DNA of 32,000 bases from Thermodesulfobacteriota bacterium (lineage in GTDB: Bacteria > Desulfobacterota > WTBG01 > JAGOGO01): the NCBI GenBank assembly GCA_026625185.1, contig CP113000.1:2445622-2477621 (forward strand). Direction: 5' to 3'. The notes beneath the pieces are model-generated. The model ran no database searches and was not told the origin of the DNA. It worked only from the letters and a program-made list of their open reading frames with translations. The stretch's first letter is position 1, and the number at the start of each line of letters is the position of its first letter. Position numbers and translations under genes: made by a program. Shown in pieces: positions 13,076 through 29,607 of this stretch.

Positions 13076-13148
<73 letters not shown>

Positions 13149-17224: not shown

Positions 17225-17359
17225 TTCTATCCTTGCTACCATTTTGCTACCATAACAAGCCAAAACAGGAAACAACAAGGGACAACAAGAGAAAGTTAAA
17301 TTATTAATTTCTTTCTTATTCTTCCTTCCTGTTATCCCTTATTATGTACTTGCAAAGAC

Positions 17360-17401
17360 CTGAAAATCCGTGTGTCGACAGTTCGATTCTGTCCCTCGGC
17401 A
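17360..17401 (+). repeat. att-like direct repeat: exact copy of the last 42 nt of tRNA-Phe (anticodon loop to discriminator)
   Basis: CTGAAAATCCGTGTGTCGACAGTTCGATTCTGTCCCTCGGCA is identical to 13107-13148. There is no 5' half, so it is not a functional tRNA. Confidence 0.95.
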
Positions 17402-17728
17402 TCAGTATTTTTAATGACTTAGCTTAATTGTGTTAGGTCCTTTTTTGTTACCCGACCATTTTGTCCCCACTTTTTAAGTTAAGTATTGTGAAAAGAGGGT
17501 AGGGTAAAACTTATACCTCTTCCTAAACAAAGCATTCACTCCTTACCGGCACTACTTCAAGGGACTGGGTTTCCAAAAGGGTGTAGACCCCCCCCTAAGA
17601 CCCCAGTCACCCCTTCGTTTGAGTGTAGACTGGACCAATTTTACACAGGGGGGAAATTTATGAGGGCTAGCCATTTTTTGTTATTAGGTAAGCATGGGCG
17701 CCGAAATAAAGCGCTTAACCTATTCCCT

Positions 17729-18265
17729 TCACTCATCCGGAGAGTACGATAATATTTCATCCCTGAATCGTGCCGGGGCTGTGTAAGGGTGAAGCTCGCT
17801 CTTTGTCCTATCAAGGATATGCCGCACACAAACTCCTGCCGCCTTCAGGTAATCGGCAATTAACGACCGATGACACCTCCACCAGACTGCTTCCGCGCAC
17901 ATGACGACCGTTCGTTTCCGAGAGGCCAGATCCAACAGTCGTTTGACTCCTGCACGAAACTCTTTTGTCTCCATGTAGTCCGCATAGCCGCGAAATGATT
18001 CGTTGCGCCAGAGGGTGTTTTGCGAGTCCGGACGCGGCTGCCTTCGCCCGCCGAGTTCGGGCAGCAGAACATACTCTATTCCAACTCCTGTGAGTGAAAT
18101 GCGAAGTGCGCCTTGATTGAAGTGTGGGTATTTACGGGAAGCCGGGACACGTCTCACATCAGCCAGAGATTCGATCTTATTATTGGTGAGCAACTCGAAA
18201 AATTCGCAAAGGGTTCGAGTTGAATGCCCCACCGTCCAAATAGTCAACTCCTCTTCATTCATCAT
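17729..18265 (-). CDS. DUF488 domain protein (copy 2, identical)
   Basis: The translation is identical to 13476..14012. Confidence 0.85.
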   Translation of the reverse strand: MMNEEELTIWTVGHSTRTLCEFFELLTNNKIESLADVRRVPASRKYPHFNQGALRISLTGVGIEYVLLPELGGRRQPRPDSQNTLWRNESFRGYADYMETKEFRAGVKRLLDLASRKRTVVMCAEAVWWRCHRSLIADYLKAAGVCVRHILDRTKSELHPYTAPARFRDEILSYSPDE

Positions 18266-18581
18266 ATAAAATCGCTGAGTGTCCGTCTAAAAATGTTTGT
18301 ATGGTTTTCCTAGGATACATAGGTAAATGATTATATTTGGCATAAGACCCCTTTTTAAGGATTTTATAATTTTACGGACGGCCTCTTTCCTTCTTCCAAG
18401 GAGCCGCCCCCCCTTCGGTCAACGGCGAGGGTCAGGTTCAGCGAGCTTGTGAGAGCCGTAACCTGGACTTTCTGGTTGGATATCTGTCTATCCTGTTTTC
18501 ATCTTTTGTGAAGCATCCCGTCCAGAACCAATTCTAATCATAGAAATGCATCTACCGGACTCCTCTGAATGTGCGCTCTTG

Positions 18582-18872
18582 TCATTGCTGAGCAACAGTG
18601 CCCGCCAAGCGGGCGGAAATCTCCGACAACTTCCGTATAATAATCCAGTTCTGCTTCACCACGGCAGCGAGATATCCGACTGTTGCCTGGTCTGCAGCAT
18701 TGGCGAACGAAAACGCCATTCCCGCTTTCATCAGGCTGAGGCCAGTGAGATCAGTGGCGATTTCCTCGATCATCGCCACGTCTGCTGCGTCAATCTCCGT
18801 TAGGTGATACTTCTGTATGAATTCGTTCTTCTTGCGCTCGATTTTTTTCTCCTTGCTCTCAAACAGTCCCAT
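18582..18872 (-). CDS. 96-aa hypothetical protein (copy 2, identical)
   Basis: The translation is identical to 14329..14619. Confidence 0.6.
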   Translation of the reverse strand: MGLFESKEKKIERKKNEFIQKYHLTEIDAADVAMIEEIATDLTGLSLMKAGMAFSFANAADQATVGYLAAVVKQNWIIIRKLSEISARLAGTVAQQ

Positions 18873-19342
18873 GTGATCCTCCTTTCTTCCTGCCTAACAA
18901 TGCTTATATTGATCCGTATAAGATCACATTGTTAAGAATTTTATAATTTTATGGACGTCCCCTTTCTTCTCCTATCTTCCCTTCCTAAAAATCAAATAAA
19001 AATTTATTCCTGAAATTTCATGCTTACGTTATACGATGTTTTGCTTTTATAGTAAGTGCTTAAAGAAGGGAAGCCGAAAAACGAGGTTCGCCAGAGCTTA
19101 AGAAGGGCTTTTCAAGGCGAAGGTTATTTTTGGTTTTTGTCTTACAAAAAAATTTACAAAATTAACCTCATATAGACAGATATATAAAATTATTGTAGAT
19201 TTTAATTTTACAGGGTACAATTAACCATGCCTTGATGGAAAAACGACACTATTTCCTTTGAACCACCCGGGACAGAACCGAATGATCCGTAATTTCATTG
19301 ACCCGGCGTTTTTCCGAATCCGCATTTTTTAAGGGAGTAGTC

Positions 19343-22731: not shown

Positions 22732-22772
22732 CTGAAAATCCGTGTGTCGACAGTTCGATTCTGTCCCTCGCA
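22732..22772 (+). repeat. att-like direct repeat: third, slightly degenerate copy of the tRNA-Phe 3' part
   Basis: CTGAAAATCCGTGTGTCGACAGTTCGATTCTGTCCCTCGCA equals 13107-13148 with one G deleted in the acceptor 3' strand. The next 64 nt or so are about 75% identical to the sequence following copies 1 and 2. Confidence 0.9.
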
Positions 22773-24100: not shown

Positions 24101-24502
24101 TTATGGCCAAGGTTCTGTTTTAACTGGACGACCATACTTATCTTTGCCAACTCCTAATCCATAAACATTTGGTTCAACTTTACTTCCGGGGGGCACGGTT
24201 TGCCCATCTCGGGTTTTCCACTGGAAGGGGCGCCCTGTAGCGTCGGGCCCATAAGCATCATTATAATAAGGACCCATATAGGTGTGCTGGTTATTCCAAG
24301 AACTATTAAAAAGGCCATTAGCCATCTCAGAATCTATACCTTTAAGTATTTTGTCTTCCTCCAGTGCCGAGCCTTTATCGTCTAAACCCAAATAAGCCAA
24401 TCCCAGGTTATAGTGGGCATCGGCATCATCCGGTTTAAGGCGGATAGCCTGTTTATAAGCCTCCACCTCCTCCTGGTAGCGGCCGAGCTCGGTATAAACC
24501 AC
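24101..24502 (-). CDS. TPR-containing protein, probably an N-terminally truncated remnant
   Basis: The TPR consensus AKKYNLGVVYTELGRYQEEVEAYKQAIRLKPDDADAHYNLGLAYLGL starts right at the beginning of the open frame, which has only a GTG start, no ATG and no RBS. The C-terminal part is unrelated (Y/G/P-rich). Confidence 0.45.
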   Translation of the reverse strand: MVYTELGRYQEEVEAYKQAIRLKPDDADAHYNLGLAYLGLDDKGSALEEDKILKGIDSEMANGLFNSSWNNQHTYMGPYYNDAYGPDATGRPFQWKTRDGQTVPPGSKVEPNVYGLGVGKDKYGRPVKTEPWP

Positions 24503-24814: not shown

Positions 24815-25738
24815 TTATTCAAATTCTTCAAATTCTTCCGCAGAATAAAAAAGATGCAAGTCCATTATTTTTTCTTTATCCAGCCTGTTATCCAGTATTA
24901 ACTTTTCGGCCTTATTTCTGAGCATTTCGGCGGCTCTTTCAAATTCGTCAAGCTTTTTGGAAAGCCCGTTTTCCTCTATGATGGTTTTGATGGTGTCGAA
25001 AAGAAGCTGGTTCCCATAAAGCAACAATCCTTCCTGGAGAATTTTAATGGCTACCATACGTTTGAAATCATCGAAACAGGCCTGGTCCCTGATGAGACTA
25101 AGCCTTTTTATTTTGTAGTCGACTTCTTCTCTGATAGCCGGAGTTATGAGCATCCGGTACTTTTTTTGATAGATAAGGTCATCGAGTTTATTGATATAGG
25201 TATCCGGAAAGTGATCATCGACGGCAACAATAAGGTCAATATCAGAGCCCATTACAATTTTCCCGGTGCTGCGTTCCGGTCTGGGCACGTCATGCGCCAT
25301 ATTATAAACAATGTCCCCTGCAATAATAAAACAAATTTGATGGCGCTTTGATATACCATCGTCGAATTCCTGCATAACATCCGAAACCATTTTTTGGGCA
25401 AGCTCAAGTTTAAACCTGCTTATTTCATGAATGCGGGCACTTAACTCTATGCACCTTTTTTCAAGCAGGTCCGGGCGGTCCTTGAGCCCTATAATTGAGT
25501 AGGTGAGGAATTCTCTGAGAATGGAAGGTGAGAGACGGGCAAAACCCTTGACATGGCGGTCAAGCCTCAAGTACCTTTTGCCTACTGTTTGTACCTGAAG
25601 GCTCCGGGAATGCCTGCAGGTTTTCCAGATCAAAAGGTTGTCTTCATCTATCTCTTTCTTAATTTCAAACCCGGTGCGAGGTCCTTTTGTTCCGATCAGC
25701 CTGACTATATCCCTTTCAATAGGAGGCATATCCTGCAT
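24815..25738 (-). CDS. uncharacterised protein: N-terminal wHTH-like region + Pol-beta-superfamily nucleotidyltransferase-like core
   Basis: This is a 307-aa ORF. IERDIVRLIGTKGPRTGFEIKKEI is wHTH-like. IIAGDIVYN...GKIVMGSDIDLIVAVDD resembles the G[SG]...D.D minimal nucleotidyltransferase motif. The start lies 2 nt after the stop of the upstream gene. Confidence 0.6.
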   Translation of the reverse strand: MQDMPPIERDIVRLIGTKGPRTGFEIKKEIDEDNLLIWKTCRHSRSLQVQTVGKRYLRLDRHVKGFARLSPSILREFLTYSIIGLKDRPDLLEKRCIELSARIHEISRFKLELAQKMVSDVMQEFDDGISKRHQICFIIAGDIVYNMAHDVPRPERSTGKIVMGSDIDLIVAVDDHFPDTYINKLDDLIYQKKYRMLITPAIREEVDYKIKRLSLIRDQACFDDFKRMVAIKILQEGLLLYGNQLLFDTIKTIIEENGLSKKLDEFERAAEMLRNKAEKLILDNRLDKEKIMDLHLFYSAEEFEEFE

Positions 25739-25740
25739 CG

Positions 25741-26706
25741 TTAAACTAAGGTTAAATCCTCAAGCGTTATCGTTTTTTCTTTGAGCCGGCCTTTATTGGC
25801 AAGCAACTCCCTGCCGGCAACTTTGTCGAGCACATATAATAACTTACCGCCATTTTCTGCATATTTCTGTCCATAAGAAATGGGAACCGCAGGGGTCACT
25901 GGTTCCAAAAGAGACCGTGTTATAGACTCGACCTTTCTTTCCCCGCTTGCCAGAAGAATTACATTTCTTGCCTGATAAACAAGCTCCGCCCCCATGGATA
26001 TAGCATAATGAGGGCAGTCCTTTACGGTAGGAAAATGTCCGTCGGTGACCGAGTTTTTAATGGTGTTATCATCAAGCTTAACAAGCAGGACTGAACTTCC
26101 CTTGAACGGAATTCCTGACTCATGAAAGGCCACATGCCCGCGTCCCCCGACACCGATGACTTGCACGTCTATCCCTCCCGCCTTTTTAATTTTTCGCGAG
26201 TAGCCGTCCAAGATATCCTTCCTTATCCAGGCAAGATATTTTGATTTTGCTTTTGGTTTTATGACGATTGATTTTCCGGCATCAGTGCCCGTATAGCTCC
26301 AATCCCCGGGATAGCTTCTGAGTTCTTTTATCAGTGTCCTCTGGTCAATCAACGAACCAAAAGGCACACTTGTTTCAACAAACTTCTTTTTCAAAAGGCC
26401 GAAAAACTCCTGAATCATGAAATAGCAATAGCTTTCAGGATGTACCACCCGCTGCTGGATGTTTTCACCGGGCAAACCAACATACTCATCAAGATTAAAG
26501 CTTCTGATACGTCCGCTGTCGAACTCACCGTCATTCGCTGCCTGGGCTAAATATTTGTACATGCCGGTCGGCGAGTTTCCGGTGGCGAGTCCCAAAACAA
26601 TCTCCTTTTTGGTTTTAGACAGCCCGATCAGTTCTTTTTTTACAATGTCCGCCGCGACCTTGCTCATATGTTCAAAGTTATTTGTTATTAATACCTGAAT
26701 GGACAT
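25741..26706 (-). CDS. glucosamine-6-phosphate deaminase/isomerase (NagB/6-phosphogluconolactonase superfamily) paralog with internal insertion
   Basis: This is a 321-aa ORF. It contains VLGLATGNSPTGMY, FNLDEYVGL and IGVGGRGHVAFHESG, which are NagB-type motifs. About 50 extra residues (SLIDQRTLIKELRSYPGDWSYTGTDAGKSIVIKPKAKSKYLAWIRKD) lie between the conserved blocks. Confidence 0.75.
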   Translation of the reverse strand: MSIQVLITNNFEHMSKVAADIVKKELIGLSKTKKEIVLGLATGNSPTGMYKYLAQAANDGEFDSGRIRSFNLDEYVGLPGENIQQRVVHPESYCYFMIQEFFGLLKKKFVETSVPFGSLIDQRTLIKELRSYPGDWSYTGTDAGKSIVIKPKAKSKYLAWIRKDILDGYSRKIKKAGGIDVQVIGVGGRGHVAFHESGIPFKGSSVLLVKLDDNTIKNSVTDGHFPTVKDCPHYAISMGAELVYQARNVILLASGERKVESITRSLLEPVTPAVPISYGQKYAENGGKLLYVLDKVAGRELLANKGRLKEKTITLEDLTLV

Positions 26707-26760
26707 TGGTTTCCTCCAGTAAGTGTTTATTAAAGATATGCGGTAATGTGAACTGTCATG

Positions 26761-28110
26761 TCAGCCCAGGACACTTTTTACGGCGTCAGCAATCTCTTTG
26801 CAGTACTTATCCGTAACTGACTCAGAAGGTCCCTCAACCATTACCCTGCACATGTTCTGGGTGCCGGAATACCGGACCAGAACACGGCCATCATCACCCA
26901 ATTCCTTCTCAACCTTCTCTATTATCTCCTTAATCTGAGGGACAGTTGAGATATCCGGTTTGCTCTTCACGTCCACATTGATCAGTTTCTGGGGATAAAT
27001 ATCCATCATCCGGGCAAGTTCTGACAGGGGTTTGCCTTTTCTGACCATTGCAGCGAGCAGCTGCAGAGCGGTGATGATACCGTCGCCGGTGGTGTGATGA
27101 TCAATAAAAATCACATGACCTGATTCTTCCCCGCCGATCACGCTACCCAGCTGTAACATGTCCTCCAGGACGTAACGGTCTCCGACTTTGGAGGCATGGT
27201 ATTTGAACCCATATTTTTTACAGGCAACCCTTAACCCAAGGTTGCTCATTACGGTGCTTACAAGAAGGTCATTTTTTAATTTACCCTGTTCCTTGAGAAT
27301 CGTTGCGCATATGAGCAAAATTTGATCGCCGCTTATTTCCTGTCCTTTTTCATCGACGGCTATCAGACGGTCACCATCGCCATCAAAGGCAAGGCCGATC
27401 GCGGCACCACATTCAACAACCTTTTTCCTCAGGTCCTGGGGATGTTGTGAACCACATTTATCATTTATGTTGATACCATTTGGGGTGTTGTGGATAACTT
27501 CTATTTCTGCGCCCAGTTCCCAGAAAGTTTCGGGGGCAACTTTATACGTGGCGCCATTGGCAGTATCGAGAACGATTTTCATTCCTTCAATAGATAAATC
27601 CCGGGGGAACGTGTTCTTTAAAAAGACAATATAACGGCCATTCACATCTTCCAGACGGAAAGCCTGCCCCATCTCATTGACGGGCGGCACCAGCCCGTGA
27701 AGAGTATTGCTCATTATCAGGTCTTCAATAGATTCTTCCTGCTCATCGGAGAGTTTGAAACCGCTGCCGGAAAAAATTTTTATGCCGTTATCTTGAAATG
27801 GATTATGCGAAGCCGAAATGACAATCCCCGCATTGGCCCGCATACTCTGGGCAGCGAATGCTATTCCCGGGGTCGGCAATACCCCAAGCAGATATGGATT
27901 TCCGCCCATTGAGGTTATCCCCGACTCCAGGGAACTCTCCAGCATATAGCCCGAAATACGCGTGTCTTTCCCGATAACTATTTTCGGGCGGGAGTGAGCC
28001 TTTTTTAAGATATAGACAACTGCTTGCCCTATGGTAAAAGCTATTTCTGCGTTCATCGGATACCGGTTTGCTTCTCCCCGGACACCATCGGTACCAAACA
28101 ATTTAGCCAT
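26761..28110 (-). CDS. glmM: phosphoglucosamine mutase
   Basis: The 449-aa ORF has MAKLFGTDGVRGEAN, the active-site loop GIVISASHNPFQDNGIK, the metal loop FDGDGDR and GGEESGH. Confidence 0.95.
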   Translation of the reverse strand: MAKLFGTDGVRGEANRYPMNAEIAFTIGQAVVYILKKAHSRPKIVIGKDTRISGYMLESSLESGITSMGGNPYLLGVLPTPGIAFAAQSMRANAGIVISASHNPFQDNGIKIFSGSGFKLSDEQEESIEDLIMSNTLHGLVPPVNEMGQAFRLEDVNGRYIVFLKNTFPRDLSIEGMKIVLDTANGATYKVAPETFWELGAEIEVIHNTPNGININDKCGSQHPQDLRKKVVECGAAIGLAFDGDGDRLIAVDEKGQEISGDQILLICATILKEQGKLKNDLLVSTVMSNLGLRVACKKYGFKYHASKVGDRYVLEDMLQLGSVIGGEESGHVIFIDHHTTGDGIITALQLLAAMVRKGKPLSELARMMDIYPQKLINVDVKSKPDISTVPQIKEIIEKVEKELGDDGRVLVRYSGTQNMCRVMVEGPSESVTDKYCKEIADAVKSVLG

Positions 28111-28146
28111 ATGCGTTCCCTCCTCTAATTATTGTATTTTAAGAAA

Positions 28147-29367
28147 TCATTTATCAAACACCTTAAGCGACGGAAGGATTGCTTTTGTCTTTTCGCAAAA
28201 ACAATCAACCACCCGCTGAAGCCATAATACGCCTTTCTCAGAAACATGAGCGGGTAACGCCTGTATAACAGCAATATAATGTGCCCCGCTTCCGCTCCCG
28301 GCTTTATCGAAAACAAAGAGAAAGTCATCGCGGTATTTCTCAACAAGATTATCCCTTATGCCTTCTGCAAACAACCCTTCTATTTCCGAAAACTTATCAT
28401 AGAACTGGTTCCTTCCAGCCGGGCCCTTTGTTTTTTCGGCCAGCATCTGCAAACGCTTCACCCGTTCTTTTTTCGCAAGGGTCAGTTTATCAAGCAACCC
28501 GGAAAAAATAAGCTGGCCGAATTCCTGTGAATCAAGAAATGCACGCCTCACATAAATATACCACTCCTCCAAGGCCATAAGATTTGCGATATACATAATA
28601 TTATTCTCTACTATCCGGCGAAGGTTGAAATAGGCTTTGGGCTTAAAACTAATCGATTTTCCGGAGGGTGTGTTCCCGACGATAAGTTTGTTGTCCTCAG
28701 TAAAATCTTTCCTCAGAACGGAGTTAGCCGCCACCACATTGCCGTATCCCATACGTAAAGGGCCGACGATGCCTCCTTGACCGCCAAGAAAGATGGCCGG
28801 CTGGTTAAGCATCACACCCCTTGGTACATCACCGATCAGTGATGCCGTTGTTTTGTCCCCATCCGGTGTAAAGTTAAAATGAATATAGGAACTGCCCACC
28901 TCACTGTGGTCCTTGCGGCTCCTACCTCCGGCCATTAAACAATCACAAAAATTGATCAGACTACCGAGGGTCACAAAAGGGAAAAGAATGGTCTGTTTTA
29001 AACCGACACAGTGCGCTCCGTTGGCCTCCTCTTCAAGGATACAGCCTTCACGTACGTGAGCCCCCAAACCCATATTTGCCTTTTCCAGAAAGACCGACTT
29101 GGTGAAATACCCGCCCTTCAGCTCAACCATTGGTCCTAACTGGCAATTTTCTATTGTAACCGGACCTTCGTATCCAATCTGCACCCCAGTTGACATGACA
29201 GTTTGCTCGCCATAAATTCTGCAGCCAGGATAAATCTTGACACCTTTTGCCGAGATTCGATCAACTCTTACCTCGTCGCCCAGATCTATGGTTGAGGGAT
29301 TTGGAATATCAATTCCTTTCTGCATCAACTGAACAACCTTATCATAGCACCGGGGTTGATTATCCAT
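28147..29367 (-). CDS. left-handed beta-helix (hexapeptide) acyltransferase-like protein resembling only the C-terminal domain of GlmU, with a long helical C-terminal extension
   Basis: This is a 406-aa ORF. Residues of about 20-240 parallel the GlmU acetyltransferase domain (GAHVREGCILEEEANGAHCVGLKQTILFP...SSYIHFNFTPDGDKTTASLIGDVPRGVMLNQPAIFLGGQGGIVGPLRMGYGNVVAANSVL). There is no N-terminal pyrophosphorylase domain. The last 170 aa or so are unassigned. The RBS is AAGGAGGAAAGG. Confidence 0.65.
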   Translation of the reverse strand: MDNQPRCYDKVVQLMQKGIDIPNPSTIDLGDEVRVDRISAKGVKIYPGCRIYGEQTVMSTGVQIGYEGPVTIENCQLGPMVELKGGYFTKSVFLEKANMGLGAHVREGCILEEEANGAHCVGLKQTILFPFVTLGSLINFCDCLMAGGRSRKDHSEVGSSYIHFNFTPDGDKTTASLIGDVPRGVMLNQPAIFLGGQGGIVGPLRMGYGNVVAANSVLRKDFTEDNKLIVGNTPSGKSISFKPKAYFNLRRIVENNIMYIANLMALEEWYIYVRRAFLDSQEFGQLIFSGLLDKLTLAKKERVKRLQMLAEKTKGPAGRNQFYDKFSEIEGLFAEGIRDNLVEKYRDDFLFVFDKAGSGSGAHYIAVIQALPAHVSEKGVLWLQRVVDCFCEKTKAILPSLKVFDK

Positions 29368-29440
29368 CCTTTCCTCCTTAAAGAAACTTGTGTATCAATA
29401 ACGCTATCATGATTGAATAGTTAGAATCAGTTAACCAACC

Positions 29441-29491
29441 AATTTCTTTCTTATTCTTTCTACTTGTTATCCCCTGTTAGGCATTTGCAAG
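29441..29491 (+). repeat. sequence related to the extreme right end of island E1
   Basis: AATTTCTTTCTTATTCTT (18/18), TGTTATCCC (9/9) and TTGCAAG are shared, colinearly, with 17306-17357, which abuts the tRNA fragment in E1. Confidence 0.55.
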
Positions 29492-29493
29492 CA

Positions 29494-29607
29494 ACTGATG
29501 GCAGAGCGCAGAAACTTCTTGATGTCTCGCTACTAAATCGCCTTGGCTGGAAGGCAAAAATCACCTTAAAGCAGAGTATCGCCACAACCTACGGTTGGTA
29601 TACGTAA
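29494..29607 (+). pseudogene. 3'-terminal fragment (about 37 codons) of a GDP-L-fucose synthase (fcl/wcaG)-like epimerase/reductase gene
   Basis: TDGRAQKLLDVSLLNRLGWKAKITLKQSIATTYGWYT* matches the conserved C-terminus (DGtPrKLlDvs.l..LGW......l..gi..TY.W) of Fcl enzymes. The rest of the gene is absent. Confidence 0.65.

Follow-up and report, generated by a model that had tools for sequence, protein, structure and literature searches.

A mobile LbH-glmM gene cassette encoding a probable stand-alone glucosamine-1-phosphate acetyltransferase in a Thermodesulfobacteriota bacterium

Can the acetylating step on the way to UDP-N-acetylglucosamine (UDP-GlcNAc) be carried out by a gene of its own, and can that gene travel? 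The question is raised by a four-gene cassette in a 32,000 nt stretch of a Thermodesulfobacteriota bacterium genome (GenBank assembly GCA_026625185.1, contig CP113000.1, positions 2,445,622 to 2,477,621), hereafter called the window. As an earlier note on this DNA had described, the cassette consists of four adjoining minus-strand open reading frames (ORFs), separated by gaps of 36, 54 and 2 nt. Gene 1 (28147–29367, 406 aa) encodes a left-handed beta-helix (LbH) acyltransferase that resembles a stand-alone C-terminal half of GlmU. It is followed by gene 2 (26761–28110, 449 aa), the phosphoglucosamine mutase gene glmM, and by gene 3 (25741–26706, 321 aa), which encodes a paralog in the NagB family of glucosamine-6-phosphate deaminases. 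Gene 4 (24815–25738, 307 aa) encodes a winged helix joined to a Pol-beta-type nucleotidyltransferase domain. Our preferred answer, which we hold at a probability of about 0.72, is that this is a mobile cassette making N-acetylglucosamine 1-phosphate (GlcNAc-1-P), in which the LbH protein acetylates glucosamine 1-phosphate (GlcN-1-P), and that its arrival is followed by displacement of the native glmM and erosion of glmU.

The LbH protein corresponds to the acetyltransferase half of GlmU alone, as had been proposed. Residues 12–231 align to positions 242–436 of the GlmU model TIGR01173 (E 2e-12), with a score of 46.6 bits against a cut-off of 366.85. The uridylyltransferase domain is absent, and the protein matched no Pfam family. 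In the predicted model (predicted local distance difference test score 93), residues 1–240 form the beta-helix and residues 249–397 a helical C-terminal domain, which agrees with the tail noted earlier. The first 35 Foldseek matches of this model were all GlmU, which places it in the LbH acetyltransferase fold. In the VIA comparison, the GlmU matches reached Z 22.5 (root-mean-square deviation (rmsd) 6.4, 218 aligned) and 22.4 (rmsd 2.7, 207 aligned), and the next family Z 18.6; QdtC and LpxD ranked below GlmU. The GlmU residues R333, K351, K392, N386, His363, Glu349, Tyr366 and Asn377 serve phosphate-binding, oxyanion and catalytic roles. The equivalents of R333, K351 and N386 are R106, K124 and N165, which are invariant in 69 of 69 family members and 99% conserved in distant relatives, and K172 sits within one alignment column of K392. 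His363, Glu349, Tyr366 and Asn377 are replaced by S136, G122, N139 and E156, also in the distant relatives. Gene 1 is thus outside the GlmU family by domain content, by score and by the catalytic histidine. One natural protein (P0285, 750 aa) fuses a truncated GlmU with a member of the LbH family. An Atlas lead towards DUF6819/DUF4954 was dropped, as it scored only 0.85 and no alignment member matched those Pfam families.

The distribution of the LbH family was examined in an even sample of 251 genomes of the phylum, whose relatedness means that the LbH and GlmU counts are not independent, so that we put no weight on a Fisher test of them. The LbH protein was found in 40 of these genomes, the NagB paralog in 11 and gene 4 in eight. 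Full-length GlmU is present in only five of the 40 LbH genomes, compared with 132 of the 211 LbH-negative ones. Thirty-three of the remaining 35 LbH genomes carry a uridylyltransferase-only GlmU, which stops short of the acetyltransferase site but retains its uridylyltransferase residues; these partner proteins also keep the GlcNAc-site residues G140, E154 and N169. The same pattern is seen within genus g17, where two LbH carriers have a truncated GlmU and two non-carriers a complete one. Read from genome content, this complementarity is the strongest functional evidence for the proposed LbH role. Together with the GlmU-like fold and the natural fusion, it makes a stand-alone GlcN-1-P N-acetyltransferase the most likely identity of the LbH protein, and with the conserved gene order described below it supports the earlier suggestion of an acylating step after GlmM. 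A divergent stand-alone subfamily of the GlmU N-terminal domain (258–290 aa, N227 to D, two insertions) was also observed at loci L137–L144.

In the mechanism that we propose, the cassette moves horizontally, and GlmM, whose family membership is clear from its score, would convert glucosamine 6-phosphate (GlcN-6-P) to GlcN-1-P. The LbH protein, presumably a GlmU-like trimer, would then move the acetyl group from acetyl-CoA to the amine of GlcN-1-P, and a separately encoded GlmU N-terminal domain would form UDP-GlcNAc. The phosphate and oxyanion residues being kept and serine standing at the position of His363, catalysis may use another base (E156, H154 or H163) or none. The NagB paralog would provide an optional, ammonia-fed supply of GlcN-6-P beside GlmS, and gene 4 an optional accessory, most likely a regulator nucleotidylating a protein. 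After arrival of the cassette, the native glmM would be lost, and glmU would later, in most lineages, suffer erosion of its acetyltransferase half.

Several observations weigh against this interpretation, in addition to the relatedness of the sampled genomes. The replacement of the four amine-site residues is family-wide, so substrate or chemistry may differ, and the helical domain of ~160 residues has no explanation in a GlmU-like role. The GlmU-LbH fusion is known from a single 3.6-kb contig. Truncation of GlmU does not need LbH: 79 of the 211 LbH-negative genomes are also without full-length GlmU, and in genome G210, where LbH gave no match, GlmU is truncated as well. GlmS is present in all 40 LbH genomes, so that the NagB paralog would rarely be needed. 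It is canonical in 21 of them; in the other 19 a giant GlmS-like protein of 1230–1310 aa (for example at L028:1927-5691) stands in for it, never alongside it. Most catalytic residues are retained in this giant form (S303 is changed to A and S347 to T), whose Cys1 equivalent lies behind a long N-terminal extension. The 79 genomes without LbH and full GlmU, which include several whole families, must use something else, and there are probably other acetyltransferases still to be recognised; a search of five genomes of this kind for PF16314 found none. A separate observation concerns family f93, in which no GlmU match was seen in six genomes (G258, G261–G265) and UDPGP-family matches were present in all five tested.

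The genome containing the window shows the displacement of a native gene. Gene 2 scores 591.2 bits against the TIGR01455 cut-off of 447.55, which bears out its naming as glmM, and its active-site serine motif S101-H102-N103 is invariant. It is the only intact glmM in the genome and is of foreign origin. The native copy survives as a frameshifted 290-nt 3′ piece between folP and pdxJ (G000:C1:2720718-2721007; L301:2219-2508), left by a deletion of ~1079 nt with 5-nt microhomology. The remnant is 89–93% identical in protein to the intact glmM at that site in the same-genus genomes G252 and G253, in which no cassette was seen and whose GlmM proteins are only 52% identical to the window copy. The latter groups with Syntrophorhabdaceae-type cassette copies (Shimodaira–Hasegawa-like approximate likelihood ratio test support 100) in a quick tree, which included no one-clade test. 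The cassette genes were not found in three same-genus genomes (84–95% complete). The cassette is therefore a recent, horizontal arrival in this genome. In the probable source sequencing run, contigs whose overlaps of 30 letters fall slightly short of the tool's bridging rule reproduce the glmM deletion junction at a depth of ~694; another branch, 1183 nt long and at a depth of ~83, may fit a minority allele with the intact native glmM. An interrupted native glmM was also observed, with no cassette match, in the same-genus genome G251 (L209/L302, 84% complete).

The earlier note had called for a check of canonical glmS and glmU, and both are present in this genome at C1:515141-518397 with their checked residues intact. 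The cassette thus fills no gap here, yet the presence of both genes does not imply that the operon genes are unrelated in function; it is explained by the recent acquisition of the cassette. A suspected degeneracy of this GlmU was rejected, as all 20 residues checked are intact, and a search of the genome for a gene of UDPGP/NagU type gave none. The genome represents an early stage of a gene displacement in progress, in which glmM has been displaced and glmU and glmS are still intact. In four other genomes with both LbH and full-length GlmU, the cassette glmM is again the sole glmM.

Gene order within the cassette is conserved beyond chance. The 80 best gene 4 loci in GTDB come mostly from Syntrophorhabdaceae, Syntrophaceae, Desulfobacteraceae or Desulfatiglandales bins. 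The complete four-gene order recurs in 26 of them, as expected of the hexosamine operon that had been suggested; nagB alone is missing in 12, and at least one other cassette gene (LbH, glmM or nagB) lies near gene 4 in 58. In metagenomes, where 80 loci of the NagB paralog were surveyed, its immediate upstream neighbour is glmM in 64 of 70 cases, the second gene upstream is LbH in 49 of 53, and gene 4 follows in 27 of 68. Seen from the LbH gene, 30 of 39 loci have glmM as the next gene downstream, and in four more the giant GlmS-like gene takes its place. LbH-glmM is the core of the cassette, with nagB and gene 4 optional, and the cassette has been passed among anaerobic sediment and digester bacteria. 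The gene overlapped by a distant LbH member at locus L159 encodes a DegT-type aminotransferase and is not glmM, so some members may serve other amino sugars. Scans for promoters and terminators in the operon gave only chance-level signals, and an Rfam search there found neither riboswitch nor ribozyme.

Gene 3, the NagB paralog, scores 139.7 bits against the curated nagB cut-off of 236.9 and falls below all cut-offs, so that it is best called NagB-like. Compared with E. coli NagB it has insertions of ~40 and 7 residues, close to the single insertion of about 50 residues described earlier, and the inserted sequence carries conserved residues of its own. NagB residues D72, H143 and E148 and the phosphate-site residues G42 and K208 correspond to D73, H191, E196, G43 and K258, all kept in 35 of 35 sequences. 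R189 stands opposite D141, and V220 opposite R172 where the alignment is uncertain, so the full set of NagB residues is not retained. We slightly favour the aminating direction, in which the enzyme would depend on ammonia and be an optional supplier of GlcN-6-P alongside GlmS. The earlier proposal of this direction is plausible from gene context. A nagA gene was not found in 10 of the 11 carriers, this genome included, and glmS was not found in G010 (98% complete) or G210. In G010, an exact overlap of 114 bases between two contig ends places a convergent nagB-glmM pair behind glmU, where its relative G119 has glmS. The apparent loss of glmS with nagB present in G010 and G210 is probably one event. 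As nine of the 11 carriers keep GlmS, aminating use is likely supplementary.

The same proportion of GlmS carriers also fits the strongest of the competing explanations, in which the NagB paralog is a catabolic overflow valve that drains excess GlcN-6-P and gene 4 is a passenger. Deamination is the usual direction of NagB (PMC3306399), and in 22 of the 80 gene 4 loci no cassette gene lies within the retrieved DNA. Against a valve stand the position of glmM directly upstream, the general absence of nagA matches, the two genomes in which glmS was not found, and three glmS-bearing relatives that are without this nagB. We regard the valve as a serious but less probable reading, roughly one chance in three, and it can coexist with acetylation of GlcN-1-P by the LbH protein.

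A second competing explanation concerns the LbH protein itself, which could use another acceptor or donor: UDP-glucosamine (a reversed order of steps, as in nucleotide-sugar N-acyltransferases), GlcN-6-P, or a group other than acetyl, with the helical domain forming a new pocket. This would account for the four amine-site residues that differ from GlmU. It also fits QdtC, LpxD and LpxA, which come after GlmU in structural similarity and have nucleotide sugars as the substrates that they acylate; the QdtC match runs into the helical tail (model 10–380). However, GlmU comes clearly first by both sequence and fold, the phosphate-binding positions are kept, and the partner GlmU N-terminal proteins retain their GlcNAc-site residues. 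We consider a different substrate unlikely.

The composition of gene 4 as a winged helix and a Pol-beta-type nucleotidyltransferase was upheld by fold comparison, in which residues 1–90 are predicted to form the winged helix. The acidic signature of the Pol-beta superfamily is invariant (G141-D142, D166, D168, D207), and PF01909 matches 47 of 69 members weakly. The start given earlier may be too early. The database call and most relatives are 304–305 aa long, which points to the ATG at 25729, 9 nt later, and would widen the gap to gene 3 to 11 nt. Its nearest folds are DrrA, ANT, GlnE, MNT and GlnD, mostly protein-nucleotidylating enzymes; the best VIA match is to DrrA (Z 9.3, rmsd 3.2, 149 aligned), with GlnE at Z 7.3 and GlnD clusters at template modelling (TM) scores of 0.44–0.46. 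We tentatively suggest that gene 4 encodes an accessory regulator of hexosamine flux that nucleotidylates a protein; a small-molecule nucleotidyltransferase or a passenger is also possible. Gene 4 lies near rapZ in seven of the 80 loci. In E. coli, RapZ senses GlcN-6-P. In a comparison with the MNT-HEPN and CBASS defence nucleotidyltransferases, no meaningful PADLOC match was obtained for gene 4, and no recurring partner was recognised among its neighbours; a search for longer nucleotidyltransferase forms returned a single uninformative protein of 1052 aa. A complex prediction for the LbH protein with the nucleotidyltransferase scored 0.00 and bears neither way. A bolder, rather unlikely version would make the whole cassette a self-contained, ammonia-fed GlcNAc-1-P route for energy-limited anaerobes, with a histidine-less beta-helix acetyltransferase of different chemistry and gene 4 switching the pathway through covalent nucleotidylation of one of its enzymes. 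If true, this would be GlnD/GlnE-like control of a kind not described for cell-wall precursor synthesis.

The earlier note had gene 4 nucleotidylating the sugar in place of the GlmU N-terminal domain, so that the cassette alone would make a nucleotide sugar, with gene 4 as a non-canonical GlcNAc-1-P nucleotidyltransferase. Its frequent proximity to LbH, glmM or nagB (58 of 80 loci) and its invariant catalytic acidic residues are compatible with this, G263 and G265 carry gene 4 and no GlmU match, and the fold search gave a weak match to Tam41, a Pol-beta-type fold able to use a phosphate acceptor. The proposal was nevertheless not sustained. Each of the eight gene 4 carriers in the phylum sample encodes a uridylyltransferase of the GlmU type that shows the expected residues, and in five of them this is a divergent 268–290-aa GlmU N-terminal protein that keeps G140, E154 and N169; 33 of the 40 LbH genomes are missing gene 4; a UDPGP-family gene present in G263 and G265 is also present in relatives that have no gene 4; and the nearest folds are those listed above. 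Gene 4 is probably not the uridylyltransferase, and a sugar nucleotidyltransferase role for it is improbable. The idea that gene 4 tracks loss of the GlmU N-terminal domain was rejected, since the weak GlmU matches in those genomes are divergent GlmU N-terminal proteins. Least probable of all is that the LbH protein has no catalytic activity and serves GlmM or GlmS as a scaffold or regulator. This would suit the lost His363/Glu349 pair and the constant position of its gene beside glmM or the giant glmS, but not the new invariant polar residues around the site (E156, H154, H163, N165, K172), and it leaves unexplained the loss of the GlmU acetyltransferase half where LbH is present.

Returning to acetylation of GlcN-1-P by the LbH protein, the cassette probably works like the acetylating half of GlmU together with GlmM, as a variant of a known pathway. 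The LbH beta-helix is collinear with the acetyltransferase half of bifunctional GlmU (TIGR01173; E. coli, PDB 2oi6), keeps the R333, K351 and N386 equivalents and has the same pathway context. It differs in being without the uridylyltransferase domain, in its ~20% identity, in its linkage to glmM, in the changes H363 to S, E349 to G, Y366 to N and N377 to E, and in the extra helical domain. Uridylyltransferase-only GlmU proteins exist, and some pathways must be completed by an unidentified acetyltransferase (bioRxiv 10.64898/2026.06.23.733835); the stand-alone halves in that study are described as truncated GlmU domains, and its text contains no match to "Desulfo". The Capnocytophaga protein GlmUCc is truncated too, but Capnocytophaga scavenges GlcNAc instead (PMC4358021). 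In Giardia, an anabolic glucosamine-6-phosphate deaminase of the NagB family makes GlcN-6-P where GlcN-6-P synthase is lacking (PMC4281351), whereas the aminating direction of the cassette NagB is deduced from context, GlmS is usually present beside it, and it has a conserved insertion. Gene 4 shares with the protein nucleotidyltransferases GlnD, GlnE, DrrA and MNT and with the aminoglycoside nucleotidyltransferases (ANT) the Pol-beta core with G-D, D-x-D and a third Asp, and differs from them in its 10–17% identity, its N-terminal winged helix, and the absence of HD/ACT domains and of a HEPN partner. Our literature search found no paper on the LbH family or the cassette.

GlmU is treated as near-universal, and the LbH family, with over 8,000 sequence clusters, is a candidate for the missing acetyltransferase of many sulfate reducers and syntrophs. 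Its members are often labelled "bifunctional GlmU" or "UDP-GlcNAc pyrophosphorylase" in databases despite having no such domain. If the LbH protein is active, the histidine usually regarded as catalytic is dispensable for GlmU-type acetylation.

Within the window, DNA similarity to the same-genus genomes ends at a tRNA gene (13076–13148, plus strand), which places the cassette in an accessory region behind it. The 3′ part of this tRNA gene is repeated at 17352–17398 and 22732–22770. A segment upstream of the cassette (29429–29498) is 77% identical to 17294–17363, just before a tRNA-fragment repeat, and is possibly a boundary of the inserted DNA. The tie to neighbouring exopolysaccharide and PrsT genes that had been drawn earlier was not supported, as the relatives did not have such genes as recurring neighbours. 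The tRNA integration hot spot (13076–13148, 17352–19300, 22732–22770) contains a near-exact duplication with a spacing of 4253 that includes two ORFs. An orphan fragment of 38 codons at 29491–29607 (plus strand) resembles, by eye, the C-terminus of a GDP-fucose synthase-type protein, and similar DNA is found in same-genus genomes. On the other side of the cassette, a 133-aa ORF at 24101–24502 looks like a truncated tetratricopeptide repeat (TPR) gene, and a TPR-coding segment at 24390–24515 matches many tandem copies in G252.

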